In this document: piece by piece, positions 2,276-46,251 of the stretch
How positions within the stretch are numbered: the stretch's first letter is position 1
Layout: every line of letters begins with the position of its first letter
Assembly: GCA_041749535.1 (NCBI GenBank)
Contig: JBGTBE010000042.1
Span: 70,702 to 134,701, forward strand
DNA length: 64,000 bases
Source of the DNA: Cryomorpha sp.
GTDB lineage: Bacteria > Bacteroidota > Bacteroidia > Flavobacteriales_D > Cryomorphaceae
Reading direction: 5' to 3'
Position numbers and translations under genes: made by a program
The notes under the pieces: generated by a model
Database searches by the model: none
Told to the model about the DNA's origin: nothing
Seen by the model: the letters and a program-made list of their open reading frames with translations, nothing else

Positions 2276-3034
2276 ATGCCAGTAAAAATCAGATTACAAC
2301 GCCACGGAAAAAAAGGCCATCCTTACTTTCACATTGTGGTAGCCGACGCCCGTTCTCCACGTGATGGAAAATACATTGAGAGGCTCGGGTTTTACAATCC
2401 AAACACCAATCCTGCCACGATCGAAATTGATGTAGATGGAGCGGCAAAATGGCTCAACAACGGTGCCCAGCCAACGGATACCGCAAGAGCAATACTATCC
2501 TATAAAGGGGTGCTTTATAAGAACCACTTAATGAGAGGTGTTGCGAAAGGAGCTTTTACCGAAGAACAGTCTGTTGAGAAATTCAACGCATGGCTGGAAG
2601 AAAAAGCCCTGAAAATTGACAACAAGAAGAAGGGTCTTTCTGAAGCAGCCTCTAAAGCATCTGTGGATCGCCTGAGAGCTGAAACAGAAGTGAATAAAAC
2701 CCGCGCTGCTGCACTTGCCGCCGCCAATGCTCCGGTAGTCGAAGAAGCAGAAGCTCCATCTGAAGAAGTAGCAGTTGAAGAAGCAACAACTACAGAAGCA
2801 CCAGTTGCAGAAGCAACAACTACAGAAGCACCAGTAGCAGAAGCACCAGTAGCAGAAGCACCAGTTGCAGAAGCACCAGTTGCAGAAGCACCAGCTGAAG
2901 ATGTACCGGTTGCAGAAGCACCAGTTGTAGAAGCACCAGTTGTAGAAGCTCCAGCTGAAGAAGCACCCGTTGCAGACGCACCAGCTGAAGAAGCACCAGC
3001 TGCAAAAGATGAATCCAAAGAAGATAAGGCCTGA
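2276..3034 (+). CDS. rpsP: 30S ribosomal protein S16 with a long Ala/Glu/Pro-rich C-terminal extension
   Basis: The N-terminus [42 protein letters not shown] is a canonical S16 sequence. The C-terminal roughly 100 aa is (A/V)PVAEA-type repeats, and rimM follows downstream. Confidence 0.9.
2740..3000 (+). repeat. In-frame 15-nt tandem repeats (gcagaagcaccagtt and variants) inside rpsP
   Basis: Repeats of gcaccagttgcagaagca and variants are visible in the sequence. They generate the antisense low-complexity ORFs at 2515..3081 and 2820..3005. Confidence 0.8.
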
Positions 3035-4516: not shown

Positions 4517-5308
4517 ATGAGCATCACACTAAAGCCATTTTTGCTACCATTTATAGCCGTTTCCCTATTTATAGCCGGCTGCAATGAAAACGATTCGGAT
4601 GATGATTTCCCTGATCAGACAGGTATTCAGGGCAAGGTACTTGTCCAGAATGAATTTGGACAACCACTTTACGAAGAGAGAAATGGCATAAGTGTACTGC
4701 TCGAAACAGGGTTCAGAAGTTACGACCTTGATGCCGACAATGTGGGCTATTGGCAGGTTGGCGGAGCTCCGGTAGGTTCATATACCATTACTTATAAAAA
4801 AACAGGGTGCGGCACCATCATTGCGCGCAACGTGTTAATCAGCACCACGAGTCCTGTATTTGAAGTGATCGGTGGCTTTCAGCAAATGGCTACCCCAACC
4901 CTCACCAAATTAGCCAATGCTTCTTTCAGCGGATTGAATCTCGACCTTACTACCAATGTAAATGGAGGCACAACTACCTATACCCTTGATGTGAGCGGCA
5001 CCATTATACCAGGACCTCCACCCACTGGACAAGCCAAGGGTTACAGGGTGTTTTTGGCCAGAACGTCCACGGTTTCCAAGGATAATTATGAGTTTCAGCA
5101 GCACGCAACCACAACCACGGCTGCCTTCACAACAACGATTGACAGTTCTGTGCTTTCGGAACTCAATGTGGTGCCCGGACAGACCTTGTACGTAGCTGTT
5201 TATGGAGATTCGAATTTTGATTTCAGCCAGGAAAGACCCAATGGTTCGTTTGCCTTTCCAAACCTAAGCATCGAGCCCTCTGCAGCAATTTCAGTAGTGC
5301 TTCCTTAA
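4517..5308 (+). CDS. Hypothetical lipoprotein
   Basis: A signal peptide with lipobox (LFIAGC) is present. The body is Thr/Gly-rich and predicted beta-rich, with no recognisable catalytic motif. Confidence 0.55.
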   Translation: MSITLKPFLLPFIAVSLFIAGCNENDSDDDFPDQTGIQGKVLVQNEFGQPLYEERNGISVLLETGFRSYDLDADNVGYWQVGGAPVGSYTITYKKTGCGTIIARNVLISTTSPVFEVIGGFQQMATPTLTKLANASFSGLNLDLTTNVNGGTTTYTLDVSGTIIPGPPPTGQAKGYRVFLARTSTVSKDNYEFQQHATTTTAAFTTTIDSSVLSELNVVPGQTLYVAVYGDSNFDFSQERPNGSFAFPNLSIEPSAAISVVLP

Positions 5309-6666
5309 CTCTTCCTGACGCTCGTGTGTACCTCACTTTCGGTGAACTTGATTCCGTAGGTTTCTAACTCATCGAGTATTGGGTTGTAGATCTCTGCTGA
5401 CATGGGCATATGAACACCTGCTTTTGCATATTTTCCGGTAAGAATCATTTTTGCGGCAATGGCAACGGGTAGACCTACGGTTTTGGCCATAGCCGTGCGT
5501 GGCTGTTCTTCGCCAATAACCACCAAGCTGCTGTGCCATTCGCGCTCATCCATTTCTCCCGGCTCACGTGTAAGCATCTTGTGCCACATCACAATCATAT
5601 CCTTGTCATCAGGAGCAAGTGTCCATTTCTTCTCGAGGATCTGTTGTAAAATTCTAGCGGGCGATGCATCATCGGGTAAGCCTATGGGCGTGTCGTCAAA
5701 AATTCCGAGCCACACCAACTTATCAATAATCTCACTGTCCTGGTCCATTTTCATGTAGTGCATGAGTTTTAGCTCTACGCTGTCAGAAGGATGGTATTTT
5801 AGAAAGCTGTTTGTAAATTGTCTGTGCGTCATGGTGCTGCTTCCCTCCAACAGGAAGGAGTCATCCGTCATTCCGAGCTGAATGAACACATCCCATGCCC
5901 TGCAAAACCCTACCCTTCTCAAAGTGCCTCTATAAATGGTGGGTACTCCTTTGAGACCGTACATGTCGCGGTAGTTCAAGGAATCGCGGTTTGCATATCC
6001 TTCAAACTTTCCGTATCCCGGTATTTCTATGATTTCTGTTCTCCTGAAGAGTTTGTGGTATGGTATGTATTTGAACTGCCCGTTGTGTTTGAATTTCACA
6101 GTTCCTCCCTGCCCTGCAAGTACCACATTCCGAGGGTTCCATGTGAACTTATAATTCCAGGGATTGTCATCACTTTCGGGAGCAATAAGCCCTCCGGTGA
6201 AGCTCTCATACCAAGTAATCTCTGCGCCTCGCGCGCGGGCATTGTCCAGAAGTCTCATTGCCGACATGTGATCGATCCCGGGGTCTACGCCCAATTCATT
6301 CATGAAAACTATACCTGCACGCTCTACATCGCTCGCCATCTGTTTCATCTCAGCTGAGATATAACTCGGAGTGATGAGGTTCTTCTTAAACCTGAGGCAA
6401 TCACGCGCAATGTCCAGATGCATAAACGCAGGTAGCATGCTTATTACAAGATCAGCCTGAGAAATGAGCTCAGCGCGCCGTGAAGAATCTGCGGCATCAA
6501 AGCGCACCACTTCAGTACAACTGTGATCTCCTGCCAATTGCTTTGCAGCTTGAGGATTTGCGTCTGCGATGGTAAGTTCTAAATCGAGCGCTGCTGCGTG
6601 TTCTATTAAGTATTCTATCAGAGCTACGGATGACCTGCCGGCCCCCACGAGTAATATCTTTTTCAT
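5305..6666 (-). CDS. Saccharopine dehydrogenase family oxidoreductase
   Basis: An N-terminal Rossmann motif (MKKILLVGAGRSSVA) is present. The length (453 aa) and the conserved central/C-terminal blocks (GVDPGIDHM, TWNPRNVV) fit this family. Confidence 0.8.
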   Translation of the reverse strand: MKKILLVGAGRSSVALIEYLIEHAAALDLELTIADANPQAAKQLAGDHSCTEVVRFDAADSSRRAELISQADLVISMLPAFMHLDIARDCLRFKKNLITPSYISAEMKQMASDVERAGIVFMNELGVDPGIDHMSAMRLLDNARARGAEITWYESFTGGLIAPESDDNPWNYKFTWNPRNVVLAGQGGTVKFKHNGQFKYIPYHKLFRRTEIIEIPGYGKFEGYANRDSLNYRDMYGLKGVPTIYRGTLRRVGFCRAWDVFIQLGMTDDSFLLEGSSTMTHRQFTNSFLKYHPSDSVELKLMHYMKMDQDSEIIDKLVWLGIFDDTPIGLPDDASPARILQQILEKKWTLAPDDKDMIVMWHKMLTREPGEMDEREWHSSLVVIGEEQPRTAMAKTVGLPVAIAAKMILTGKYAKAGVHMPMSAEIYNPILDELETYGIKFTESEVHTSVRKS

Positions 6667-6835
6667 AGCTGTTGGCTATTTTGCCTTGGCGAAGGTAAAA
6701 TTCTTCATTTCTGAAAAAGAAATATAACCTTAATTATTTTCGAACAGTATAGTATTGGCAACAAGGCTCAAAAGCTTTTGGCATATCCCTTGTAAGCATG
6801 CAAATCATCATTTACATTCGTTTAACTAAACAACT

Positions 6836-7819
6836 ATGAGAAATTTTATCATCTCCGTTTTATCTGCTTGTTTTTTAGCATCTTGCATTATCGCAAATGC
6901 CCAGAACACTTCTCATCTGGAAGTTTTTACTGAAAATGGTGAGTCATTCATACTTACTGTAAATGGTGTGAGAATGAATCAGGAGCCTCAAAGCAATGTA
7001 AAAGCCACCGGTCTTACTGGTGAATACCAAAGAGTTGGAGTCCAGTTCAGCGACCTTAGTCTAGGTACGGTGAGTCAGAATGTAATGACCGTGCCAGGTA
7101 CAGCGCAGCGCGCAGTGGTAAAGCTTATAAAGAAAGGATACGTGCTAAGGCCTTTTGGAGAGCCCATTGCCCTGGCGAGTGAAATTCAAACACCTACAGT
7201 TACCGTTATAGAATCTTCACCTTTGCAGTCATCTCCTACCCACAGAAATGAAAATATCAAGACCGTAGAATCTACCCCCGACCCTAATTTGGTGTTGACC
7301 ACAGTCACCACTTCTTCCACTGCGAGAAGCGCAGATGAAAACTTGAAAATGGACATCGTAACGAGAGATGTGAAGGTGGGAATCGATGTACGGGTGATTG
7401 ATGGCGAAGAAGGTACGGCCACCATGGTGCACACCAACGAACCTACAAACAATGTACAACGATGCCAAAGCACAGAAGTACTCACAGCGCAAAGTGAACC
7501 CACTCCTGTTGCAACACCTGTGGACGATTGCAGTGCAATGGCTGCCGCTGAATTTTCAAATTTAAAATCATCTTTGGCTTCGAAAAATTTTGAAGACAGC
7601 AAAACCACAACGGCTAAACAAGTGCTTCGAAATACATGCATGAGCGCAAGTCAGATAGTGGAAATAGTTAATTTGCTCACCTACGAGGAGAGTAAACTCG
7701 ATTTCGCGAAAGCGGCATACACGCGCTGTTCTGACCCACAAAACTACTGGAAGCTCAATGATGCTTTTACCTTTGAAACATCCATAGACGAACTCAACGA
7801 ATTCCTTGAAACTAAGTAA
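6836..7819 (+). CDS. Secreted protein with a C-terminal DUF4476-like domain
   Basis: It has a signal peptide (ANAQ cleavage site), a Thr/Ser/Pro/Val-rich linker, and a C-terminal block (FEDSKTTTAKQV...KLDFAKAAY...NYWKLNDAFTFETSIDEL) that matches my memory of DUF4476. It is the first gene of an overlapping four-gene operon. Confidence 0.55.
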   Translation: MRNFIISVLSACFLASCIIANAQNTSHLEVFTENGESFILTVNGVRMNQEPQSNVKATGLTGEYQRVGVQFSDLSLGTVSQNVMTVPGTAQRAVVKLIKKGYVLRPFGEPIALASEIQTPTVTVIESSPLQSSPTHRNENIKTVESTPDPNLVLTTVTTSSTARSADENLKMDIVTRDVKVGIDVRVIDGEEGTATMVHTNEPTNNVQRCQSTEVLTAQSEPTPVATPVDDCSAMAAAEFSNLKSSLASKNFEDSKTTTAKQVLRNTCMSASQIVEIVNLLTYEESKLDFAKAAYTRCSDPQNYWKLNDAFTFETSIDELNEFLETK

Positions 7820-9212
7820 TTACATATTTGCTCCTTCTGCTTCAGCTATGCTGCAACGCAGTGTTCTAGCGTTGTTTGTTGTGTTGCTGCTCGGCGCCTG
7901 CAACGGGTCTAAGTCACTCTATAAACGTGGCAATCAACTCCAACAAGCCGGACTTCACGAGGATGCAGCTGAGTACTACTACAATTCACTGATGCGCAAT
8001 AGGAACAATATTGATGCGCGCATAGCACTTACCGAGGCGGGGCAGCGGTCTTTGAACAATAAACTCGATGAATTCTCTCGAGCCCGCGCAATGGGCGACC
8101 ATCAAAAAGCGGTGAGCAATTTCGAAAGAGCCCAGGCATATAGCCAGAAAGTGGCAAAGCTGGGGGTGAATCTCACCATTCCCGACTATATGGAGCAGGA
8201 TTTTACTGCAAGCAAAGAGGTCGTGATAAAAGATTTGTATGAGAAAGGCAACCAGCTCATGGCTGAAAAACGCTTTGATGAAGCAAATGCAACCTTTAAG
8301 GAAATAGCCAGACTGAACCCTGATTACAAAGACATTAAAGATTTGAAGCGAATTTCGCGCAATGAACCTCTCTATATAGCTGCAACAGGCTACTTTGATT
8401 CCAGGGCTTACCGAAAAGCTTATTATGAATTTGAAAAGATATACAGCGATGATCCAAATTACAAGGACATCGGACTGCTTCGCGAAGAATGCTTGAATCT
8501 GGGGAGATATCCGGTGGCTGTGCTGCCATTTGAGAATGCCACAGGTATAAAAGGTGTCGAAAAGCGGGTGCAGGCATTTGTAATGAATGAGCTCTCCAAT
8601 CTAAACGATCCGTTTCTGCGCATTGTGGAGAGGGACAATATGGACATCATTCTCAAAGAACAGCGACTAAGTTTAAGCGGTGTGGTAGATGAGGGAAGCG
8701 CTGCCCAAGTTGGCAATTTGCTGGGTGCAAAAGCAATTATATCGGGCAATTTGCTCAGCTACAAAACCACTACCGGCAAGATGCGCACAGTGGAGAAAAA
8801 CGGATTTGAATCATACACTGTAAAACTATACAATAGCGCAGAGGACAAGCACTATTTCGAAACGAGATACAAACCAGTGAAATACCGTGAGCATTCTAAT
8901 AAAAATGACGTATCAGTTTCATTTCAGTACCGGGTTGTTTCACTAGAATCAGGCGAAGTACTCTTTTCGCGCATTGTAGAACGCAACATAGAGAGCACAG
9001 TATATTTTGCAACTTATGATGGAGAAGCCTCAAATCTTTTTCCCATGTCTCAGCAGGGCACTGTAGGAACTTCAAGAGATAAAAATGTGTTGCTATCAAT
9101 GCTCAGGGCAAACCGGGAAATCAAATCTATCGATGAACTTTCGGGTGTTGCATTTATGCAAATTGCCACAGAATTGACCCAGGAACTGACTTCAAAATTG
9201 GCGAGCGAATGA
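7806..9212 (+). CDS. Lipoprotein with TPR repeats and a CsgG/LpoB/FlgO-like alpha/beta domain
   Basis: It has the lipobox LLLGAC, and the likely true start is the internal Met near 7848. TPR-like helices sit at the N-terminus. The block VAVLPFENATG...RIVERDNMDIILKEQRLSLSG...GNLLGAKAIISGNLLSY is the hallmark of the CsgG/LpoB/TolB-N fold. Its start overlaps the upstream stop. Confidence 0.6.
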   Translation: MKLSNYIFAPSASAMLQRSVLALFVVLLLGACNGSKSLYKRGNQLQQAGLHEDAAEYYYNSLMRNRNNIDARIALTEAGQRSLNNKLDEFSRARAMGDHQKAVSNFERAQAYSQKVAKLGVNLTIPDYMEQDFTASKEVVIKDLYEKGNQLMAEKRFDEANATFKEIARLNPDYKDIKDLKRISRNEPLYIAATGYFDSRAYRKAYYEFEKIYSDDPNYKDIGLLREECLNLGRYPVAVLPFENATGIKGVEKRVQAFVMNELSNLNDPFLRIVERDNMDIILKEQRLSLSGVVDEGSAAQVGNLLGAKAIISGNLLSYKTTTGKMRTVEKNGFESYTVKLYNSAEDKHYFETRYKPVKYREHSNKNDVSVSFQYRVVSLESGEVLFSRIVERNIESTVYFATYDGEASNLFPMSQQGTVGTSRDKNVLLSMLRANREIKSIDELSGVAFMQIATELTQELTSKLASE

Positions 9213-10579
9213 AGTTCTTTTACCTCAACATTATAGTATTGCTCGCTCTATTCTCTGCCTGTAAAAGCAAAGAGAAAACCGTTGAAACTTCGTATCCCCC
9301 ACCACCGGGTTGGGTAACATCAAGGCCCATATCCAGCATGCATTATGTTGGGATTGGCGTCGCGCAAAAGGCCCCTGCGAGCAATTTTCAAAAGGCTGCA
9401 CGCGACAATGCACTCAGCGATCTCGCTTCTGAAATCAAAGTGAATGTAAACACAAATTCCCTTCTCTATACTTTGGAGCGCGACTACAAAATAGAACAGG
9501 AATTTAAAGAAACGATACGCATAAGTTCCAACCTGAATCTCGAAGACTATGAGGCCATGGATTCTTGGGAAGACGCTACAAGCTATTGGGTATATTACAG
9601 GCTCAACAAAGAAGGTTATGCAGAGCAGCAGAGGGAAAAGCAAGTAGGCGCGCAGGAATTGGCCAAGGATTTTTTAGCAAAAGCCCAAAGTGCAGAAGGC
9701 AGCGCACAGTTTTATACTGCGGCAGATTTGTACCTAAAGGGTTTGCAAGCTCTGGAAATGTACTGGGGTGAAAACAATCAGGTAGACTATCAAGGCAGAA
9801 CTATTCTACTAGACAATGAGCTTTTTGAAGGGGCAAGAAGTCTGATAAGCGATAGCAGAATTACCATTGAGAACGACCTTGAATTGAACTATCAGAACAG
9901 GTTCAGAAGCAGTGCTGAAGTGCGCATCACTTCTTACAAAAATGAAATGCCACTTGAAGGTGTTCCGATTGTATACGAGTATTTCGGAAATTACGGCAGG
10001 TTTAAGGGCAAGGCAAGCACCAATGCCGATGGAAGGTGCCTGATTCCCATCGACGAAGCAGACAGAGAGCGGGTATCGAACAGCATTATCGTATCTATAG
10101 ACACCGACCAACTCTTTCAGCCTTTTCAGAACGATCAGTTTATGAAGAAGCTTACCAGCTCGCTTCGTGGTGCTTCTGTTCAAAAACCAATAGTGCATAA
10201 GGCGCCCACAGTTTATATGATTTCGGAGGAGAAGAACCTTGGAAAAGCTACAGATGGGGTCATCTCGGCAGCGATAATGACCTCGCTGGGCAGGCGCGGT
10301 GTGCAATTTGCCACCAACGAGCAAAGCGCTGATCTTTTGATGAGAATTGAGGCCAACACCCGGTCAGGAAACATCAGTCAGGGATTCGCAACCAGTCTCC
10401 TTACCTTAAATATTGGTGTGGTGGATAACAAAACAAAACAAAATGTGTATAAGGTAAGCCGCAGCGACCTCAAAGGAGTAGATTTAGATTATGAAAGAGC
10501 GGGTATGAAGGCTTATCAAAATTACACCCGCAACATAGAATCTGAGCTCATGAGGAAACTTACAAGTGATTTGTTTTAA
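9209..10579 (+). CDS. Lipoprotein with an LPP20 (FlgP-like) N-terminal domain and a CsgG-like C-terminal domain
   Basis: It has the lipobox LFSAC, the LPP20 motif ARDNALSDLASEIKVNV, and a C-terminal block VQFATNEQSADLLMRIEAN...LTLNIGVVDNKTKQNVY that resembles the CsgG-like fold. Its start overlaps the upstream stop by 4 nt. Confidence 0.55.
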   Translation: MKFFYLNIIVLLALFSACKSKEKTVETSYPPPPGWVTSRPISSMHYVGIGVAQKAPASNFQKAARDNALSDLASEIKVNVNTNSLLYTLERDYKIEQEFKETIRISSNLNLEDYEAMDSWEDATSYWVYYRLNKEGYAEQQREKQVGAQELAKDFLAKAQSAEGSAQFYTAADLYLKGLQALEMYWGENNQVDYQGRTILLDNELFEGARSLISDSRITIENDLELNYQNRFRSSAEVRITSYKNEMPLEGVPIVYEYFGNYGRFKGKASTNADGRCLIPIDEADRERVSNSIIVSIDTDQLFQPFQNDQFMKKLTSSLRGASVQKPIVHKAPTVYMISEEKNLGKATDGVISAAIMTSLGRRGVQFATNEQSADLLMRIEANTRSGNISQGFATSLLTLNIGVVDNKTKQNVYKVSRSDLKGVDLDYERAGMKAYQNYTRNIESELMRKLTSDLF

Positions 10580-10641
10580 GCAACTTAATAATTTGGCATA
10601 ATTTCTGAAACCTAAACCCCGAAGACAAAAACAAAAACAAC

Positions 10642-11232
10642 ATGAAAGCATCAAACATCAACTTAAGAAATTTCATCAGGCCCGCATTAATGATCATTCT
10701 GCTAGCTGCAATTACAACCTCCTGTAAGAAAAACAAAGAAGTAGCTGCTCCTGAAGGAGAAGTATTGATAAACGAATACTGTGCAGGTCCAGAGTTTTTC
10801 AGCAACAATGAATTTTTCCGCTCCAATGGCCTTGGCGAAAGTATGGACCAGGCTACAGCAAAGAAAAAAGCCTACAGCAACGCCCGTGCTGACCTTGCAT
10901 CCGCCATCAACACTACGATAAAAGGCACCATTGACAATTATGTAAACAGCCGTGAGTTTAACAACCGCGAAGAAGTAGAAGAAAGATTCGAAGGACTCAC
11001 CCGTGAGGTGATTGACCAGGAACTGAACGGTACCAAAACCATTTGCCAGAAGGCTGTGAAAGTAACTGAAAACAATAATTATAAATACTATATCGCACTT
11101 GAGTTGAGCGGTCAGGACCTACTGAAAGCAATGAATTCCAGACTTTCGTCTGATGAGCGCATGCGCGTGGACTATGACTACGAAAAGTTTAAAGAGACTT
11201 TCGAGAAAGAAATGGAAAATCTTAAGAAATAA
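10642..11232 (+). CDS. LPP20-family lipoprotein
   Basis: It has a lipobox (ITTSC) and the LPP20 signature NARADLASAINTTIKGTI. It is the last gene of the operon and is followed by a strong terminator. Confidence 0.6.
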   Translation: MKASNINLRNFIRPALMIILLAAITTSCKKNKEVAAPEGEVLINEYCAGPEFFSNNEFFRSNGLGESMDQATAKKKAYSNARADLASAINTTIKGTIDNYVNSREFNNREEVEERFEGLTREVIDQELNGTKTICQKAVKVTENNNYKYYIALELSGQDLLKAMNSRLSSDERMRVDYDYEKFKETFEKEMENLKK

Positions 11233-11250: not shown

Positions 11251-11290
11251 GAAAAGCCGCTGGATTTATTTCAGCGGTTTTTTTTTATTG
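11251..11290 (+). terminator. Rho-independent terminator of the lipoprotein operon
   Basis: AAAAGCCGCTG-GATTTATTT-CAGCGG is followed by a run of nine Ts. Confidence 0.65.
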
Positions 11291-11349: not shown

Positions 11350-11431
11350 CTTTCACCCAAAATCAAAAAGTCAGCGACCGGCTGTCGCTGCTTTTTTCAT
11401 TCCTTCCTGCGGCTCTGAGCAAGCTCAGCCG
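11350..11431. repeat. Copy 1 of an 80-bp repeat carrying a bidirectional intrinsic-terminator hairpin
   Basis: The sequence ...aaaagtcagcgaccGgctgtcgctgcttttttcattccttcctGcggctctgagcaagctcagccg occurs twice, 150 bp apart (copy 2 begins at 11499). The AGCGAC/GTCGCT stem is flanked by A/T runs on both strands. Confidence 0.7.
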
Positions 11432-11498: not shown

Positions 11499-11599
11499 CC
11501 TTCACTCAAAATTAAAAAGTCAGCGACCTGCTGTCGCTGCTTTTTTCATTCCTTCCTCCGGCTCTGAGCAAGCTCAGCCGCAGGAAGGAATGAAAAAAG
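11499..11599. repeat. Copy 2 of the repeat, with a nested 17-bp perfect inverted repeat (11540-11556 and 11583-11599)
   Basis: cttttttcattccttcc...ggaaggaatgaaaaaag encloses a second hairpin, ggctctgagcaagctcagcc. It lies immediately 3' of the tRNA-His gene on the minus strand. Confidence 0.7.
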
Positions 11600-37363: not shown

Positions 37364-38974
37364 ATGCACAACCCAACCCTTATTCGGCGAGTTCTTCACA
37401 CCCTCACCTTCTGCCTGCTATCAATAGTTGCATTTGCGCAGCCTCGCAATACCATTGAGCTGCTCGGCGCGCGCGACCTGAAGTTCGATAAAAGCATGGG
37501 CATTGACGCACAGCGGCTCATCGGAGATGTGCGCTTCAGGCATAAAGGAGCCTTGATGTGGTGCGACAGCGCTTATCTTTACAACCGTACCAACAGCCTC
37601 GACGCCTTCGGAAACGTACGCGTTTTGCAAGGCGATACCCTGGAACTTCTCAGCGATAAGCTTTATTACGATGGCAATACACAGTTTGTAAAGGTGAGGG
37701 ACAATGTGGTGCTCAAAGATGGTGAGATGACCCTCACCACTAATGTGCTGGACTTCGACCGGCGCACAGGCAAAGCGGTGTATTATGAAGGTGGTAGAAT
37801 TGTATCAGCTGCCAATACCAATGAACTTGAAAGCCTGGAAGGCCGCTACAATGCGGAAATTAAATACTTCTATTTCCGCAAAAAGGTAAAACTCACAAAT
37901 CCCAAATACCGCGTAGAAACAGACTCCCTCAACTACGACAACATTCGGGAAACGGCCTATTTCATGGGGCCTACCTATATCTACTCCGAAGAGAATACCA
38001 TATACTGTGAGAATGGATGGTACGACACCCGAAGCGACATTAGCCAATTTAATGAAAACGCATCCATAGACAATGGAAAACAGATTCTTCGGGGAGATAG
38101 TCTCTGGTATGACCGAAACAATGGTGTAGGAAAAGGATACCGGAATGTGTCCGTTTTCGACCGTGAAGCCAATTACATCATCAAAGGCCAGCTCGGCACT
38201 ATGTACGAAAGCAGCAGCCGCTCACTCATGACTGGCAAAGCCCACCTTATTCAATTTGACAAAACCGATACCCTTTACATGGCTGCAGATACCCTGCTGG
38301 CCTCCGGCGATACCATTTCCGGAAGGAGGGTGTTTGCGTACCCATCCGTACGGTTTTTCAGAAATGACCTTCAGGGTGTGGCCGACTCAGTGGTATACGC
38401 CCGCACAGATAGTATGATATATATGTACCGCACCCCGGTGTTGTGGAGCGCGAATACCCAGATTACAGGCGATACCATGGAGATCTCCACCAGGCAAAAC
38501 AAAATTCACCGCCTGTACGTGTTTCAAAATGCTTACATGGCTGAGAAAATGGACAGTACCAAGTTCCAACAAATAAAAGGGCGGCGATTAACGGGCTACT
38601 TCAAGGACAATGAACTGTACAAAACCGTGATAGAAGGCAACGGGCAATCCCTTTACTATGCCGAAGAGGAAGCCAAAACCAACCCCACAGACAGCCTCGC
38701 TGTGTCCATTAAGAATATCATTGGCGTGTACATTTCCATATGCAGCAACATTGCCATCTACATGGAAAATAAGAAAGTGAAAACAATACGTTTTCTCACC
38801 AAACCATCCGGGCGATTTATACCCTTACCCCTACTCGATCCTGAAGAAGCTTACTTTGATGGCTTTATTTGGTACCACACCATGCGCCCGGTTGATAAGG
38901 ACGACATTTTCCGCAAGGTGCAACCTGACAATGTTTTTGCCCCCAGGGTAAAGGTCAAGTCGTTCTCTAAATAA
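37364..38974 (+). CDS. OstA-like (LptA/LptD N-terminal fold) periplasmic protein
   Basis: It has a signal peptide and repeated beta-jellyroll OstA-like segments (LYYDGNTQFVKVRDNVVLKDG...). Confidence 0.6.
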   Translation: MHNPTLIRRVLHTLTFCLLSIVAFAQPRNTIELLGARDLKFDKSMGIDAQRLIGDVRFRHKGALMWCDSAYLYNRTNSLDAFGNVRVLQGDTLELLSDKLYYDGNTQFVKVRDNVVLKDGEMTLTTNVLDFDRRTGKAVYYEGGRIVSAANTNELESLEGRYNAEIKYFYFRKKVKLTNPKYRVETDSLNYDNIRETAYFMGPTYIYSEENTIYCENGWYDTRSDISQFNENASIDNGKQILRGDSLWYDRNNGVGKGYRNVSVFDREANYIIKGQLGTMYESSSRSLMTGKAHLIQFDKTDTLYMAADTLLASGDTISGRRVFAYPSVRFFRNDLQGVADSVVYARTDSMIYMYRTPVLWSANTQITGDTMEISTRQNKIHRLYVFQNAYMAEKMDSTKFQQIKGRRLTGYFKDNELYKTVIEGNGQSLYYAEEEAKTNPTDSLAVSIKNIIGVYISICSNIAIYMENKKVKTIRFLTKPSGRFIPLPLLDPEEAYFDGFIWYHTMRPVDKDDIFRKVQPDNVFAPRVKVKSFSK

Positions 38975-39138
38975 ATTCGGATAGATTCCGCATTATCTAA
39001 AATTCTTTCACAATAGTTGCACCCGTTCCTTTATTAATCGTAATATTGCAATGTATTAATGAAGCAAAATAATTTTGTGCCTTTCGCTAAGTGCATAATC
39101 CTAAACCAACAGCATTCTACAATTTAAAAATTAACCAG

Positions 39139-39606
39139 ATGAAACTCTCACAAGTAAAACACGCATTGCAAGGCATTCGCACAATCGGATTTAAACTGCC
39201 CGACGGGACATTGGTTCCAGCGCATTTTCACGTAACAGAAATAGGCAAAGTGAACAAGCACTTTATAGATTGCGGTGGCAACATCAGAAAAGAAGAAGTA
39301 ATAAACTTTCAACTGTGGAACGCCAATGATTACAACCACAGGCTACACCCTGAAAAGCTACTTAAAATAGTGAACTTGTCGGAGCAAAAACTGGGCCTTG
39401 CTGACCTGGATATCGAAGTGGAATACCAGGGGCAAACCATACAAAAATTTGGTCTTGATTTCGACGGAACCGAATTCATGCTCACCCCGCTGCACACCGA
39501 TTGCCTGGCCAAGGAAAATTGTGGTTTGCCAGCAAAGAAGCCGGAAGCCATAGCAGCAAAAAAGGAATCTGTAGCCTGCTGTGGGTCCGATTCTGGTTGC
39601 TGCTAA
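39139..39606 (+). CDS. Small conserved protein (DUF6428-like by memory) with a C-terminal Cys cluster CCGSDSGCC
   Basis: The start is taken at MKLSQVK, and the track ORF begins at 39091. The core LPDGTLVPAHFHVTEIG is conserved. The tail is Cys-rich, and the gene lies immediately upstream of a P-type ATPase. Confidence 0.5.
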   Translation: MKLSQVKHALQGIRTIGFKLPDGTLVPAHFHVTEIGKVNKHFIDCGGNIRKEEVINFQLWNANDYNHRLHPEKLLKIVNLSEQKLGLADLDIEVEYQGQTIQKFGLDFDGTEFMLTPLHTDCLAKENCGLPAKKPEAIAAKKESVACCGSDSGCC

Positions 39607-39753
39607 CTCAAGTTAAAACTGTAGGACATTTACCAGGCTGAAACAGTACCTGGTGGTGCGACAGAGATTGGTAAACCAAATTCGGCTGCAGCCATTCTGC
39701 ACAGTGATAGATGTTAGAAATAATTCGCATCGAGACCTTCAATATTCAAATCT

Positions 39754-42258
39754 TTGTGCACCTTCGCTTACTTGGAACAACCACACTTCAATCACAAACA
39801 CATAGAATATGCCGGCCTCTCAGCTGAAGATGTAGTAGCCCAACGCGCGCTCAACGGTACCAATGCACTCGGCCACCGACAAAGACAGTTTTTGCAGCAT
39901 CTTTTTTCGGTGATTAAAGAGCCCATGTTTCTGCTGCTTATGGCGGCATGCATCATCTACTTCTTGCTCAAGGAACTCCCTGAAGGGTTTACCATGCTCG
40001 CAGCACTCCTGTTTGTAGCAGGAATCGATGTGTTTCAAAATTTCAGAAGCCAGCGGGCAGTGAAGGCCCTTGGCCGCATTACTGCATCTAGTGTAAAGGT
40101 TATTCGCAATGCGGCCATCACCGAAGTAGCCATTGAAGAATTGGTTACGCAAGATGTAATAATATGCGATGAAGGAACTGTGGTGCCCGCCGATGCAAGC
40201 ATACTTTCATCCTATGATTTCAGCGTGAATGAAGCGATCCTTACGGGAGAGTCTGTTTCGGTAGAAAAAATTGCTCCTGACCCCATCATGCAAGGAACCT
40301 TGGTAGTGAGAGGATACTGCTATGCAAAAGTAACTGCAGTGGGCAAGCAAACCACCCTGGGAGGTATTGGCGCGTTGGTGGCACAATCTGGCAAGGAAAA
40401 GACCCCTTTGCAGGAAAAGGTAAACCGGTTCGTGAAAACCATGGTCATTGCCGGCAGTTTGGCATTCGTATTTGTATGGGCTTATTATTGGTGGAAGGAT
40501 GGCAGCATCATTTACGGTCTGCTCCAGGGACTCACCATGGCCATGTCGGTTTTACCAGAGGAAATACCCGTGGCACTTTCCACCTTTATGGCGCTAGGTG
40601 CCTACCGACTTCTGAAATATGGAGTGATAGCCAGAAGCCCTAAAACAGTAGAAACCCTGGGTTCAGCTACAGTGATATGCCTGGACAAGACAGGCACGCT
40701 CACCCAGAATCTTATGGAGGTGCAAAGTGCGTATAGCTTTTCTTCACTTGGCGAAATAAAATATGCAACAGCCACTGAAGCGGATGAGGTGCTGGAATAC
40801 GCCATGTGGGCGAGTGAGGAGCATCCATTTGACCCCATGGAGATTTCCATCCACGACTTGTATGCGAAGCTTTGTAAAGGAGACTTGCGACCTGAATTCA
40901 AGATGGTCCGTGAATTTCCCCTTTCGGGAAAACCACCTGTGATGACCCACATATTCCAAAACAATACCTTGGAGTGGAAGATAGGCTGTAAAGGAGGACT
41001 AGAAGGTATTTTGAACATGTGCCACCTGTCTTCTGATGTGAGGGAAATGCTGGTGCAGCAGGGGCTCAACTATGCGAAAAAAGGGTTGCGTGTACTCGGT
41101 GTGGCAAAAGGAAAACTTGCTGCAGAATCACTGCCCAAAACCCAGGAAGAAATCGAATTTACCTTTCTCGGAATCATCACCTTTTACGACCCCCCGGTTG
41201 ATGGCATCGCCGGTGTGATACAGGATTTCTACAACGCTGGTATAGATGTAAAAATGATAACTGGCGACTACAAAGAAACGGCCCTTGCTGTAGCTGCTCA
41301 AACAGGAATCAAAGCCGACGCTTCCATGAACGGCGACGAGATTGACAAGCTTGATGATGCCGCATTGTGCAAAGCCATCGAGGGGGTAAGTGTATTTGCG
41401 AGGGTATCGCCCAGTGCCAAACTCAGGGTGGTTGAAGCACTTAAAAACAATGGAGAAATTGTGGCCATGACAGGCGATGGGGTGAATGACGGCCCGGCGC
41501 TCAAAGCTGCCCACATAGGCATAGCCATGGGAAAACGAGGCACCGATGTTGCCAAAGGTGCCGCGGGGATTGTACTTTCCAAGGACGATCTTTCCAAGAT
41601 GACCGATGCCATATTTCTAGGGCGCAGAATCAATGTGAATCTCACCAAGGCCATCCGCTACATCATTTCCATACACATACCCATAATTCTGCTGGTCACC
41701 ATGCCCATCTTCTTCGGATGGCTTCCTGCACTGCTCTTCGCGCCAGTGCACGTGATTTTCCTTGAACTCATCATGGGGCCCACCTGCTCCATTATATATG
41801 AAAACGATCCTGTTCCGAAAAGTGACCTTAAACATCCATTGAAAGGAAGCGGTAAGAATTTGCTGAGCTTCTCTCAACTCGGATTCACAATACTGCAAGG
41901 AATCATGATTACAGCAGCTTGTCTGCTTGCCGGGTTCTATGGGTACCAATCAGGGTTTGACGACACGAAGAGTCGCGCCTTGATTTTCACCACCCTTATT
42001 TTATCCAATATTTTTCTCACCCTTGTGAACAGGTCGTTTACAAAGTCCATCTTTCAAACCATACGCCGAAAGAATGGGTTACTGCCTTTAATTATTGGTA
42101 TTTCACTTGCTATGCTCTTCACGTTGCTGTACACCCCAATGGCAAGGATACTCTTTGAGCTATCGGTACTCACAGCCAGGGAACTCGCCATCTGCGCAGC
42201 ATTTGCAGGGGCAGGTGTATTCTGGACAGAGCCATTCAAGAGTTGGAAAAATTCCTGA
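39754..42258 (+). CDS. P2/P3-type cation-transporting ATPase (Ca2+/Mg2+-type, not heavy-metal)
   Basis: It has a cation-ATPase N-terminal motif (GLSAEDVVAQRALNGTNAL), DKTGTLTQN, TGDGVNDGPALKAAHIGIAMG, a PEEIP TM4 motif, and no CPC. The track start is a TTG, and the true start is uncertain. Confidence 0.85.
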   Translation: MCTFAYLEQPHFNHKHIEYAGLSAEDVVAQRALNGTNALGHRQRQFLQHLFSVIKEPMFLLLMAACIIYFLLKELPEGFTMLAALLFVAGIDVFQNFRSQRAVKALGRITASSVKVIRNAAITEVAIEELVTQDVIICDEGTVVPADASILSSYDFSVNEAILTGESVSVEKIAPDPIMQGTLVVRGYCYAKVTAVGKQTTLGGIGALVAQSGKEKTPLQEKVNRFVKTMVIAGSLAFVFVWAYYWWKDGSIIYGLLQGLTMAMSVLPEEIPVALSTFMALGAYRLLKYGVIARSPKTVETLGSATVICLDKTGTLTQNLMEVQSAYSFSSLGEIKYATATEADEVLEYAMWASEEHPFDPMEISIHDLYAKLCKGDLRPEFKMVREFPLSGKPPVMTHIFQNNTLEWKIGCKGGLEGILNMCHLSSDVREMLVQQGLNYAKKGLRVLGVAKGKLAAESLPKTQEEIEFTFLGIITFYDPPVDGIAGVIQDFYNAGIDVKMITGDYKETALAVAAQTGIKADASMNGDEIDKLDDAALCKAIEGVSVFARVSPSAKLRVVEALKNNGEIVAMTGDGVNDGPALKAAHIGIAMGKRGTDVAKGAAGIVLSKDDLSKMTDAIFLGRRINVNLTKAIRYIISIHIPIILLVTMPIFFGWLPALLFAPVHVIFLELIMGPTCSIIYENDPVPKSDLKHPLKGSGKNLLSFSQLGFTILQGIMITAACLLAGFYGYQSGFDDTKSRALIFTTLILSNIFLTLVNRSFTKSIFQTIRRKNGLLPLIIGISLAMLFTLLYTPMARILFELSVLTARELAICAAFAGAGVFWTEPFKSWKNS

Positions 42259-42282
42259 ACAAGACTGCCGAAAACCAGCGCA

Positions 42283-45006
42283 TTAGAAGAAGAAATTCTG
42301 GTCGCCGCCCAGGTTTCTGTTCATTTCGAGTTTCAGGTCGCGGAGCATGGATGATTTGATAAAAAGGCTGAGATTAAAGCTCTTTCTGGTACCGAATGGC
42401 ACCACCCTTGCGTTGAACTCCCAGCAATTTAAATCTACAATGAAAAAGAGGGTGGTGGGTGTGAGTTCCTTGGTTTCAAAATCGTAACCAGAGTTTATAT
42501 TTACCTTAACCTTCTTAAAAAATTCCAATCCACCAGTTACCTGAATACTTTGGGTAATTGCAAGGGTATCAATTATTCCAAAACCCTCAGCGAGCATAAT
42601 GCTCTCTCTTACTTTCCGCACCCCAAGGGCGTATCCGAAAGTGGCATTCCAGGGAATGCTGAATTTACCGCCACCTTTGGCATCCGGTCCTTCAAGTGGT
42701 TTCCCGTTTTCGTCCATTCCTTCGGTGGTGGCAGTTGATGCACCCGGTTGCCGCTTAAACATGGCATTGCTGAGGCCGCTTGCATTCACAGCAACAGTTC
42801 CATTCTCAAAAGATGCCAGCTTGCCGGTGGAATTATACAGATAGCGGTCTACGCGGGCAATGCTTGCATCAGTGCCACTTGAATTCTGCACTGCTACATA
42901 TGAGTAAGGATCGAAAACGGCCCTTGCGTTGATGTTTGCGTACTTGGTAAGTTTGGTGCGCCCGCTCAGGCTGATGGTTGACAACTTGAGCGAGTCGGCA
43001 GCAAGGTTGTAGGTGCCGTTGGCTTGAATGTTTTCGATAATGGGAACTTTTACGAATTTATTTGCCGTGTCTCTGCGCGAAAGCATTTTGGCTTCAAGGT
43101 TGTTCACCAGGCTAAATGTTATCAGACTCGATGCACCGGAAGGTGGCCCACTATATACTGCCCCGTCATAGGGTGAGTAGCTGCCCAGACTTCCATCGGC
43201 ACCATAAAAACCATATACCCTCGCATCAAAATTTGGACTCACAGAATACCCAACTGATGGCGTGAGGGTATGGCGTATGGCTTTGATGCGTCCTGTGCGA
43301 AAGGAGTACATTCCGTACACCTTGGTGGTGGCAGAGACGCCCGCATTCCAGTTGTTGTTTCGGTCGAAGCCTATGATGGTATCCTGCACATAGGACTGTA
43401 AATCTGGATCGAATGTTCGGGACAAGGTAGAGTAGTACCAGCGCTCGTTGTATGAGAAGCTCGGATTGATAGTTACGGGCCCTGCTTTCAATGAAGTGCT
43501 GAGCCCAACTGTATGCCGTGCTCCGTTTCGAAAATCTTTCATGAGGTTGTCCAGATTGTTCAGAGAAATCTCGCTCTCATTGGCGGTAAGCCTGTTCTGG
43601 AAAGCACTGCCATACGTGAGCCCTATCTTCTCATAAAACCTTTGCTTCGTGCCATTGTTAAATAGACCTGCCAGGGGAAATGTACGCGTTCTGTTAATGG
43701 TGATTTCGGGAATGGTGAAATTGTACACAGCACCTTGATCGCCTGCGCTGTTAGAGTTTTGATCGTGGCCGGCATTCACATTAAAACTCCAGGGTGAGTC
43801 ATAGAAACGCTTTTGGTAGGTAATGTTACTTCTGAAGGTGTTGGTAAGGAAGTCGTCCTGATTGGCGTTGAGGTTGTTTCTGAAAGTGGCTGAACTACCT
43901 ACGCTCAAATCGGCAGAAAAATTCGAATTGGGCTTGGCTTTTATGTCCTGAATATGCCTCCACGTTACAAAGAAGCTACGGTCTTCAGAGTAGTTTAGCA
44001 ATTCTTTATCGCCCAGCTTTCGCACCAGGTATTGTGCATCCAGGTTGCCCGTGTACTTGTAATTTCGCTTATAGGTCACCTGATCTCTTAGCGCCCAGCT
44101 ACCTCGAGAATAGATGTCAGCAAGAATCTTGTTGTCCACATACTCGTTGATGGGCAGGTAAAAACCGAGATTGCTCAAAAAATATCCTTGTTCCTGCCCA
44201 TTTCCATATCCGGGAATGATGATGCCTGCCTGCTTCTTGTCCGTATTCGGGAAATAACCAAAAGGAAAAACCAGCGGCGTGGGAACCCCATGCAGTGCGA
44301 GATAGCCTGGCCCAGTCACGATCTTATCATTCTTGATGAGCTTTAGTTTGCCTACCTTGATCCGGGTTTTTGCATTGGGATCCTCGCAGGGGCAGTACTC
44401 CCCTTTCCGAACATATATTACGTCACCACCCTGCACCATCTTCACATCTTTTCCCGTGAGCGTACCCTCAATCACTTCTGTAAATACCTGCCGCACAAAG
44501 GCCTTTTTGCTCTTGAAATTATACTGCATGGTAAACCCGTCGAACTCATTGGCCCCATCCTTAAATTTGGGCAACCCGCTCCACACACCCAGGGAATCCT
44601 GCACACCACTGGCCGTTACGGTAAATGTTGCAAAATCGTATTCGATGTATGCGGCATTGAGCGATATGGTGCCGTAGGTTACTACTGCATCTCCATACAG
44701 ATATACCTTTTTGTTCACCACATCGTTGTCTATAGAGTCTCGGGCGTCCAGCACCACTTCAGTTTGAATGGGCGAACGGTACACATTGCTGTCGGGAGGA
44801 ATGGTATCAGTTGCGATGGTATCCGGGGGCAAAACGTTAAGCTGTATGAGGGTGGTATCAGCAGATGGGTTTTCCGGCGTGATTTGTGCAAAAGCAAGGC
44901 TGGCATTTATGAACACCAATACAAGGATAAAACACCGTATAAGTGCAATCCTAGCTGGGCGCTTATGTATAATTTTACTGATTGCCAAACAATGATTAAA
45001 GTCCAA
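42283..45006 (-). CDS. LptD-like outer-membrane LPS-assembly protein
   Basis: It is 907 aa. It has an N-terminal OstA-like domain (KKVYLYGDAVVTYGTISLNAAYIEYD), a long beta-barrel-like C-terminus, and a secretion signal. Confidence 0.6.
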   Translation of the reverse strand: MDFNHCLAISKIIHKRPARIALIRCFILVLVFINASLAFAQITPENPSADTTLIQLNVLPPDTIATDTIPPDSNVYRSPIQTEVVLDARDSIDNDVVNKKVYLYGDAVVTYGTISLNAAYIEYDFATFTVTASGVQDSLGVWSGLPKFKDGANEFDGFTMQYNFKSKKAFVRQVFTEVIEGTLTGKDVKMVQGGDVIYVRKGEYCPCEDPNAKTRIKVGKLKLIKNDKIVTGPGYLALHGVPTPLVFPFGYFPNTDKKQAGIIIPGYGNGQEQGYFLSNLGFYLPINEYVDNKILADIYSRGSWALRDQVTYKRNYKYTGNLDAQYLVRKLGDKELLNYSEDRSFFVTWRHIQDIKAKPNSNFSADLSVGSSATFRNNLNANQDDFLTNTFRSNITYQKRFYDSPWSFNVNAGHDQNSNSAGDQGAVYNFTIPEITINRTRTFPLAGLFNNGTKQRFYEKIGLTYGSAFQNRLTANESEISLNNLDNLMKDFRNGARHTVGLSTSLKAGPVTINPSFSYNERWYYSTLSRTFDPDLQSYVQDTIIGFDRNNNWNAGVSATTKVYGMYSFRTGRIKAIRHTLTPSVGYSVSPNFDARVYGFYGADGSLGSYSPYDGAVYSGPPSGASSLITFSLVNNLEAKMLSRRDTANKFVKVPIIENIQANGTYNLAADSLKLSTISLSGRTKLTKYANINARAVFDPYSYVAVQNSSGTDASIARVDRYLYNSTGKLASFENGTVAVNASGLSNAMFKRQPGASTATTEGMDENGKPLEGPDAKGGGKFSIPWNATFGYALGVRKVRESIMLAEGFGIIDTLAITQSIQVTGGLEFFKKVKVNINSGYDFETKELTPTTLFFIVDLNCWEFNARVVPFGTRKSFNLSLFIKSSMLRDLKLEMNRNLGGDQNFFF

Positions 45007-45031
45007 AACTAAGGATTTAGCAAGGGAAACA

Positions 45032-46243
45032 ATGGGCTCAAAGATGCATCATATTGAAAGAAAAACTTGGAGAATGTGGCTGCTTTGCTCCACAGTGCTC
45101 GCGACAGGATTGCTCATCGCAGCATCAACCATGCCAAAACCTAGAAGTGGCAAAGCCCTAAGGCGGGTGGTAATCGATGCCGGTCACGGGGGGAAAGACC
45201 CTGGCAATCTGGGCACTGGCAGGTACAAAGTAACTGAGAAAACGGTGGCGCTCAACGTAGCAAAGCAAGTGGGCGATTACATTAAGACCGCCTTTCCAGA
45301 TGTTGAAGTGCTTTACACGCGCAATACAGATGTGTTCCTTCCCCTGCACGAGCGCACTAAATTTGCCAACACAAAATCTGCTGATCTTTTCATCTCTATT
45401 CACTGCGATGCCTTCACCAGAGAAGGAGCAAAGGGATGCGGCTCTTATGTAATGGGAGCTGCAAAAACAGATGCAAACCTGCGCATGGCCCAGCGGGAGA
45501 ACCAGGCCATCCTATTGGAAGACGACCGAGACAAACACTACGGAGATTTTGACCCCAACTCCCCCGAAGGACTTATAGAGCTCAGCTTGCGACAAAATGC
45601 ACACATACACCAGAGCCTGCGCTTTGCGAAGAAAGTACAGGACCAGATGCGCACCCGCGTAGGGCGCGAGGACAGGGGGGTGAAGCAGGCTCCTTTTTGG
45701 GTCATCTCCTTCACCACCATGCCCAGCGTTTTAATTGAATTGGGATTTCTCACCAACAAAGAAGAAGAAGACTTTTTGGTGAGTACCCAGGGGCAAGAAT
45801 ATGTTTCATCGGCCATATACAGGGCATTTAAAGAATACAAAACAGAAATTGAAAGCCTGGAAGCCACAGTGGGTACATCACAAACCCATGAGACCAATAC
45901 AAATGCGGAGAACCCCGACCCCAAGCCTGCACAGACCATTGATGCTCCGGTGACTAGCGGAAACAGTGATGTAATATTTAAGGTACAGCTGCTCTCCTCA
46001 TCGAACCCGGTGGCATTGAAACCCGAGAATTTTAATGGGCTCAACAACGTGGAGGAGTATAGAGATAACGAAATGTATAAATATCTTTGGGGCGCAGCTG
46101 ATGAGTATGAAGCAGCCAAGAATATGCAGAAAACTGTGCGCGAAACCGGATACAAAGGAGCTTTTGTGGTGGCATTTGACGCTGATAACAAGCGCATACC
46201 ACTCGATGAAGCTATAAAAAAGGCAACGGGCAAAACCAAATAA
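45032..46243 (+). CDS. N-acetylmuramoyl-L-alanine amidase (Amidase_3) with a C-terminal SPOR-like region
   Basis: It has the VVIDAGHGGKDPG zinc-site motif and the downstream catalytic Glu block. Confidence 0.85.
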   Translation: MGSKMHHIERKTWRMWLLCSTVLATGLLIAASTMPKPRSGKALRRVVIDAGHGGKDPGNLGTGRYKVTEKTVALNVAKQVGDYIKTAFPDVEVLYTRNTDVFLPLHERTKFANTKSADLFISIHCDAFTREGAKGCGSYVMGAAKTDANLRMAQRENQAILLEDDRDKHYGDFDPNSPEGLIELSLRQNAHIHQSLRFAKKVQDQMRTRVGREDRGVKQAPFWVISFTTMPSVLIELGFLTNKEEEDFLVSTQGQEYVSSAIYRAFKEYKTEIESLEATVGTSQTHETNTNAENPDPKPAQTIDAPVTSGNSDVIFKVQLLSSSNPVALKPENFNGLNNVEEYRDNEMYKYLWGAADEYEAAKNMQKTVRETGYKGAFVVAFDADNKRIPLDEAIKKATGKTK

Positions 46244-46251
46244 TCACCTAA

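Follow-up and report, generated by a model that had tools for sequence, protein, structure and literature searches.

The accessory disks of flagellar motors, which contain FlgP, FlgT and FlgO, are a standard case of new parts added to an old machine, and the origin of these parts is unclear. FlgT, FlgP and FlgO form the H-ring of Vibrio and FlgP forms the basal disk of Campylobacter, both around the flagellar motor. FlgO and FlgP assemble into concentric C58 lipoprotein rings and FlgT is a 26-mer (bioRxiv 10.64898/2025.12.02.691832). In Helicobacter pylori, the Lpp20 operon encodes HP1454, HP1456 (Lpp20) and HP1457, and HP1454 and HP1456 interact with the flagellar proteins FlgP and FapH (PMC11756786). 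In this study, we analysed a 64-kb stretch of DNA of Cryomorpha sp. (contig JBGTBE010000042.1), hereafter the window, and describe a four-gene operon on its + strand, g1 to g4 (6836-11232), which combines LPP20 and CsgG/TolB-N-like domains in lipoproteins. To our knowledge, Bacteroidota, the host phylum, is non-flagellated. A preliminary description made from the DNA sequence had placed the operon in a non-flagellar context, and indeed the scanned open reading frames (ORFs) of the window include no gene for flagella, curli, gliding or type IX secretion.

Among known systems, this locus is closest to FlgT/FlgP/FlgO and to the HP1454/Lpp20 operon of H. pylori, and PelC is also among its nearest analogues. 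The locus belongs to none of the curli, Pel and flagellar systems, because the defining partners are absent in each case. Compared with FlgT/FlgP/FlgO, the proteins of the operon have extra tetratricopeptide repeat (TPR), helical and immunoglobulin (Ig)-like domains. The Lpp20 operon of H. pylori has no gene for a CsgG/TPR partner, and HP1454 is described as secreted and not lipidated (PMC11756786), whereas g3 is a lipoprotein by its lipobox and has helical and Ig-like domains in addition. In relation to PelB and PelC of the Pel exopolysaccharide exporter, g2 unites a TPR and a PelC-like domain in a single lipoprotein; the porin domain and the pel genes are missing. The operon resembles the CsgG curli channel, HfaB and the widespread CsgG-like three-lipoprotein cluster, in which a CsgG homologue is joined by two lipoproteins and one of these is homologous to GNA1162: g2 belongs to the Pfam family CsgG, g2-g4 are all lipoproteins by their lipoboxes, and a GNA1162-type fold is predicted for g2 and for the C-terminal domain of g3. 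However, channel hairpins are not evident in g2, there are no curli or holdfast-anchor subunits, and DUF799 and DUF4810 were undetected by sequence in the partner lipoproteins. The possibility that the locus is a documented curli cluster, which the preliminary description had raised, was checked and did not hold: no Pfam match to CsgA/B or CsgE/F was found in g1-g4 at E ≤ 1 or in the other scanned ORFs. Outer-membrane lipoprotein assemblies of SHS2 and TolB-N-like modules are a known kind of system; what is new is the non-flagellar setting and the architecture in which the modules occur. The two recurring folds are those of proteins that form oligomers beneath the outer membrane, and the most likely explanation is that g2, g3 and g4 co-assemble there into a hetero-oligomeric, possibly ring-shaped scaffold, a reading to which we give an even chance by analogy with those proteins.

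One genome per species was scanned with the alignment of g3, which gave 332 relatives, and the best 80 of the 332 were used for the analysis of loci. They belong to Cryomorphaceae, other Flavobacteriales, and Raineya, Thermonemataceae and other Cytophagales. Proteins of the window were compared with these loci by tblastn, and counts are given per testable locus. Conservation of the gene order, on which the preliminary description had made its reading depend, was found: g2 is located directly upstream of g3 in 73/73 loci (median identity 42% for g2 and 34% for g3, the query) and g4 is adjacent in 68/72. All four loci without g4 are from Cytophagales and hold g2-g3 only (e.g. Raineya). In Flavobacteriales, practically all relatives have the g2-g3-g4 order, even where g3 identity falls to about 33%. 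Independent metagenome contigs at about 30% identity agree with this order: L084 has DUF4476, CsgG, LPP20 and a 196-aa protein, and L082 and L086 are without the DUF4476 gene. In L081, g3 occurs with a g4-like gene and g2 is missing. The lipobox Cys residues of g2 (C18), g3 (C18) and g4 (C28) are invariant or nearly so in the family alignments. Flanking genes differ between loci, except for a divergent saccharopine-dehydrogenase-like gene, and no flagellar genes were called beside the operon in the relatives examined. The literature search, within the searchable library, gave no paper on the combination of LPP20, CsgG and lipoprotein and none describing the operon in Bacteroidota.

The g3 gene (9209-10579; 456 aa) encodes a lipoprotein of four parts. 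Its lipobox FSAC (Cys18) is followed by a Pro-rich tether with PPPP, the LPP20/SHS2 domain (aa 33-133, nt 9305-9607) with a conserved insert of ~30 aa (aa 82-113), a helical TPR-like region (aa 134-214), an Ig/macroglobulin-like β-sandwich (aa 216-330, nt 9854-10198) and a TolB-N/CsgG/PelC/GNA1162-like α/β domain (aa 334-455, nt 10208-10573). Judged by sequence, g3 is a member of LPP20, g2 of CsgG and g1 of DUF4476 in Pfam. When the LPP20 and CsgG assignments of the preliminary description were checked with hidden Markov models (HMMs), LPP20 in g3 and CsgG in g2 were above their cut-offs. LPP20 (PF02169) matched g3 with 41.4 bits against a gathering cut-off of 25.9 (E 2e-10, model 1-96 of 97) and also matched all 18 of the relatives tested; in databases, relatives carry the label 'LPP20 family lipoprotein'. 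In the AlphaFold2 monomer model, whose predicted local distance difference test (pLDDT) score is 89.7, this domain has the SHS2 fold of LPP20/FlgP, with a three-stranded sheet and a helix across one face, and is superposable on Lpp20. HP1454 (4kzs) was matched by the g3 family profile (E 7.4e-5), and Foldseek aligned g3 across domains with HP1454 and with FlgT; no sequence-level match to FlgP, FlgO or FlgT was found. The second CsgG-like block that had been described in g3 is visible as the predicted fold of the C-terminal domain and was undetected by HMMs. This domain was also considered as a sequence paralogue of the CsgG-like domain of g2 and rejected, as hhalign gave only a weak match between TPR-like helices.

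The best-conserved stretch of g3, SNSLLYTLER.YKFEQEF.ETI, is placed after the SHS2 helix and before strand 2, and its pLDDT in the monomer model is below 50. The ring-forming hairpin of FlgP sits at the position equivalent to this insert (PMC12222027). The insert is conserved yet poorly modelled in the monomer, which suggests that it is ordered only within a complex. The architecture of g3 is found in 859 clusters at 50% identity (E ≤ 1e-30), and in the best 150 of these clusters nearly all proteins are about 420-480 aa and matched over about the full length. One relative, P0420, has 912 aa, with two tandem N-terminal LPP20-like modules, then repeated helical/Ig-like modules, and a TolB-N-like domain at the C-terminus. 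A lipobox Cys is not obvious in P0420, which is an expanded form of the g3 architecture; its interpretation as a fusion of g2 and g3 was rejected, because its sequence consists of duplicated LPP20 and repeat modules of g3.

The start of g2 is most likely ATG 7848 (7848-9212; 454 aa), because the NCBI gene call for the identical protein (P0121) has 454 aa and the lipobox Cys is then residue 18, a nearly invariant position in the 84-sequence family alignment; the longest ORF, of 468 aa, begins at TTG 7806. An overlap of g1 and g2 at 7806-7819 had been described before. With the start at ATG 7848 it gives way to a gap of 28 bp, whereas the ATGA overlap of g2 and g3 at 9209-9212 stands. The lipobox LLGAC is followed by a TPR domain (aa 21-219, nt 7908-8504), a CsgG/PelC/FlgT-M-like α/β domain (aa ~221-405, nt 8508-9062) and C-terminal helices (aa 409-453). 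CsgG (PF03783) matched with 52.8 bits against a cut-off of 20.8 (E 4e-14), covering only model 8-159 of 210, and several Pfam TPR families also matched. The earlier assignment of g2 to a TPR plus CsgG/LpoB/TolB-N type is thus correct for TPR and CsgG, whereas LpoB (PF13036) is below its gathering cut-off of 22.3 (18.9 bits, E 0.0015); many orthologues of g2 have a precomputed LpoB match. Fold matches lower in the list were CT253, a putative lipoprotein of Caulobacter (4kwy), LptE, TraT, PqiC, TolB-N, HpaA and GNA1162. The g2 protein and its family profile matched only TPR proteins in the PDB, and no CsgG chain was retrieved by the profile at E ≤ 1, so g2 is remote from CsgG of curli. A FlgO-like nature of g2, as proposed previously, was not borne out by sequence.

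The g4 gene (10642-11232; 196 aa) encodes a lipoprotein with lipobox Cys28, a Lys-rich tether and a diverged LPP20-like domain (aa ~71-151, nt 10852-11094). The proposal that g4 is a second LPP20 lipoprotein holds in part. LPP20 (PF02169) scored 14.8 bits (E 0.039), which is below the cut-off of 25.9; on the other hand, sub-threshold LPP20 matches were found in 17/19 orthologues, and hhalign aligned g4 with the LPP20 domain of the g3 family at a probability of 95% (E 2.8e-8). From these alignments, g4 is homologous to the LPP20 domain of g3 but diverged. No other gene of the operon is as conserved as g4, whose median identity is 66% where that of g3 is 34%. In 19 aligned orthologues the mean column identity is 70% and C28, C47 and C135 are invariant; C47 and C135 probably form a disulfide. 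At least 2906 clusters of g4 relatives were found at 90% identity. The PDB sequence search with g4 gave nothing useful.

The g1 gene (6836-7819; 327 aa) encodes a presumably secreted protein with a signal peptide of the signal peptidase I type. It consists of a conserved, β-rich N-terminal domain of about 85 aa (aa ~27-110, nt 6914-7165), a Thr/Pro-rich low-complexity linker (aa ~111-234) with variable poly-Thr, and a C-terminal DUF4476 domain (aa 235-324, nt 7538-7807), which is conserved in the alignment of 20 orthologues. The signal peptide and DUF4476 reported before were both confirmed, the latter by Pfam PF14771 (74.6 bits, gathering cut-off 22.5, E 7.8e-21, model 2-91 of 91). The heading of the preliminary description called all four products lipoproteins. 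This is right for g2, g3 and g4 by their lipoboxes and not for g1, as its own text had it, since no lipobox Cys follows the signal peptide in the 20 aligned g1 orthologues. A PDB sequence search with g1 found no solved relative, and the literature found on DUF4476 consists only of papers on eukaryotic cilia, with none on bacteria. g1 is present in 56/69 loci (median identity 33%) and absent from 13/69, which include all Cytophagales loci and eight loci of Cryomorphaceae and related Flavobacteriales, among them Cryomorpha ignava. Because of these absences g1, which had been suggested to be a client or tether, cannot be a core one. In locus L086 (485-4091), two genes with C-terminal signals for type IX secretion (Por_Secre_tail) and a DDE transposase with a helix-turn-helix partner stand in the place of g1, between g2 and the saccharopine-dehydrogenase-like gene, apparently through a local replacement or insertion.

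In the proposed scaffold, g2, g3 and g4 would be lipid-anchored in the inner leaflet of the outer membrane, on its periplasmic face. In Bacteroidota, acidic residues after the lipoprotein Cys mark surface export, and we place the three proteins on the periplasmic face because acidic residues directly after the lipidated Cys are absent in all of them. The core would be g3 with g2, g4 would be a small, highly constrained LPP20-like subunit added in Flavobacteriales, and g1 would be a dispensable accessory, periplasmic or secreted. One building block would be the SHS2/LPP20 domain, as in FlgP, FlgT-N, Lpp20 and HP1454, and the other the CsgG/PelC/TolB-N/LptE-like α/β domain, as in FlgT-M, PelC, CsgG, PqiC and TraT; a docking surface and reach may come from the TPR of g2 and, in g3, from the helical and Ig-like spacers. 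A hetero-oligomeric scaffold fits the strict co-linearity, the translational coupling, the extreme degree to which g4 is conserved, and the insert of g3, which is conserved but unmodelled. In particular, the identity of g4 in comparison with that of g3 is as expected for a subunit with many constrained contacts. What the analysis shows directly are the genes, their signal and lipobox features, homology and synteny, with the folds as predictions; from these we infer the periplasmic orientation, the co-assembly, the ring shape and the role, which would be in envelope architecture or stabilisation rather than in secretion.

Several points weigh against this scaffold. Both structure predictions are of monomers only. 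The insert of g3 at the FlgP-hairpin position (~30 residues) is predicted as a low-confidence helix, not as a β-hairpin of the FlgP type. Gene content varies, as Raineya has g2-g3 alone and L081 is without g2, and therefore stoichiometric partners are not fixed. The periplasmic orientation would follow solely from the missing acidic export signal. In addition, deletion of Lpp20 (HP1456) gave no structural or motility phenotype, and LPP20 proteins are not all ring-formers (PMC11756786). A large free-standing ring or disk of g2-g3-g4, as a non-flagellar counterpart of the H-ring or basal disk, seems unlikely to us.

Other explanations of the operon have to be weighed against the scaffold. It is conceivable, though improbable, that the operon encodes a helper for export and anchoring of an exopolysaccharide or matrix, in which g2 would be a PelB-type TPR scaffold and a PelC-like funnel in one lipoprotein; in a variant of this explanation, g2-g4 would act like the cluster of 'CsgG plus two lipoproteins' or like HfaB of Caulobacter, and the polysaccharide or adhesin would be encoded elsewhere. 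The name 'CsgG/HfaB family protein' that NCBI gives to relatives agrees with such a helper, as do the MMPL transporter and sugar-nucleotide genes located 3' of the operon in one relative (L082). A CsgG-like three-lipoprotein cluster of A. baumannii is needed for poly-N-acetylglucosamine, Cup pili and biofilm (bioRxiv 10.1101/2021.05.19.444899). However, no glycosyltransferase, porin or Pel/Pga-type gene is conserved beside the operon, the DUF799 and DUF4810 partners are undetected by sequence as described above, and the fold matches are generic for the lipoprotein superfamily. The last objection also applies to the idea that the proteins are regulators of peptidoglycan synthesis or of coordination between the outer membrane and peptidoglycan, as analogues of LpoA (TPR-like), LpoB (TolB-N-like) and CpoB. 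The weak LpoB match of g2 and the combination of lipid anchor, flexible tether and TPR domain point in this direction, whereas the LpoB score is under the cut-off, no gene for a penicillin-binding protein or Tol-Pal is linked in the window, and Lpo proteins contain nothing that corresponds to the LPP20 and Ig-like domains. Bacteroidota are not known to have LpoA, LpoB or CpoB, and we consider this the least probable of the explanations.

A CsgG-type (type VIII-like) channel would require that g2 oligomerises into an outer-membrane β-barrel for the export of an unfolded substrate, either g1 or another, and that g3 and g4 act as accessory factors like CsgE and CsgF. The Pfam CsgG score of g2 is above the cut-off, g1 combines a signal peptide with a long, disordered and Thr-rich segment of the kind typical for surface proteins, and g2 has a long, Tyr-rich hairpin (aa 313-350) with ~17 residues per strand and alternating Tyr/Phe/Val. 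CsgG gives two transmembrane hairpins per protomer. In g2, however, the Pfam match ends at model 159 of 210 and no second hairpin is evident in sequence or predicted secondary structure. Moreover, the family alignment shows conserved charges in both residue parities of the single hairpin (K317, E321, K326, R340, K342, E348), alternating with Tyr/Phe/Val, which leaves no lipid-compatible face. We therefore infer that the hairpin may be soluble, perhaps an oligomerisation element, and not a pore. The failure of the g2 family profile to retrieve CsgG sequences from the PDB, the lack of CsgA/B/E/F genes among the scanned ORFs of the window and the loss of g1 from 13/69 loci that keep g2-g4 or g2-g3 also argue against a channel, which we regard as very unlikely.

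The four ORFs were found on the + strand at the positions given in the preliminary description, and the 62-bp gap between g3 and g4 and the strong terminator after g4 were confirmed as well. The terminator (11251-11283, +) has a 14-bp stem, a 5-nt loop and a T-run. Because the genes are on the same strand, with the ATGA overlap, short gaps and a single terminator, we regard them as an operon. Its promoter is presumably in the intergenic region 6667-6835, which is common to the divergent saccharopine-dehydrogenase-like gene; a promoter scan of this region, which does not cover Bacteroidota promoters, gave only generic sigma-70-like matches at chance level. The −7 promoter motif of Bacteroidota is TAnnTTTG. 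The g3-g4 spacer (10580-10641) holds TAATAATTTGG, which is close to this motif, and an internal promoter there could raise expression of g4. No family of NCBIfam was above the cut-off for any of g1-g4.

The surroundings of the operon are housekeeping or unrelated envelope genes. On the 5' side are rpsP, rimM, a methyltransferase gene and the divergent saccharopine-dehydrogenase-like gene. The last (5305-6666, −) adjoins the operon in 43/64 loci, even at a g3 identity of ~31% (L084), and is absent in Cytophagales, so this neighbourhood probably reflects inherited gene order and not a functional link, which was also considered. Beyond it, a predicted lipoprotein of 263 aa (…FIAGCNEND…; 4517-5308, +) without a Pfam match is kept at the same position in the Cryomorphaceae loci L001-L018 (38-52% identity), with weak matches (22-24%) in the more distant loci L039 and L061. 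Ribosomal protein S16 (2276-3034, +) has 252 aa instead of the usual ~80-90, with a C-terminal low-complexity extension of ~180 aa that has a weak 'extensin-like' match. On the 3' side, tRNA-His is followed by a TolC/HlyD/ABC/TetR set. A link of this set to the operon was rejected, as it is on the opposite strand, past a tRNA, and none of the 80 related loci has it. An 80-nt direct repeat occurs twice in the stretch from the operon terminator to tRNA-His (11352-11431 and 11501-11580; 95% identical, 149 nt apart). Each copy has, with A-runs and T-runs on its flanks, a GC-rich hairpin, CAGCGACC.GCTGTCGCTG, which reads as a terminator on either strand, and a second palindrome, GGCTCTGAGCAAGCTCAGCC; the repeat matched no Rfam family at threshold and has no more copies within the window. 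Farther off in the window are cbb3 oxidase, metal ATPase and LptD-like genes; the envelope genes at 37364-47271, which are unlinked to the operon, encode an OstA/LptD-N-like protein, a 906-aa LptD_2 family protein, Amidase_3 and a MlaD-domain protein. The PADLOC scan found no defence family.

In conclusion, the two folds of the flagellar accessory disks are found here in a tightly conserved lipoprotein operon of non-flagellated bacteria, which makes the operon a candidate for a role of these modules outside the motor. It offers a route into three sets of proteins of unknown function, namely the LPP20 family, the non-curli CsgG-like lipoproteins and DUF4476, and cultured hosts exist in Cryomorpha ignava QSSC 1-22, Raineya orbicola SPSPC-11 and Xanthovirga aplysinae. 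If the ring or disk is true, the LPP20 and TolB-N-like disk modules would be general envelope devices that were recruited to flagellar motors, or the reverse.

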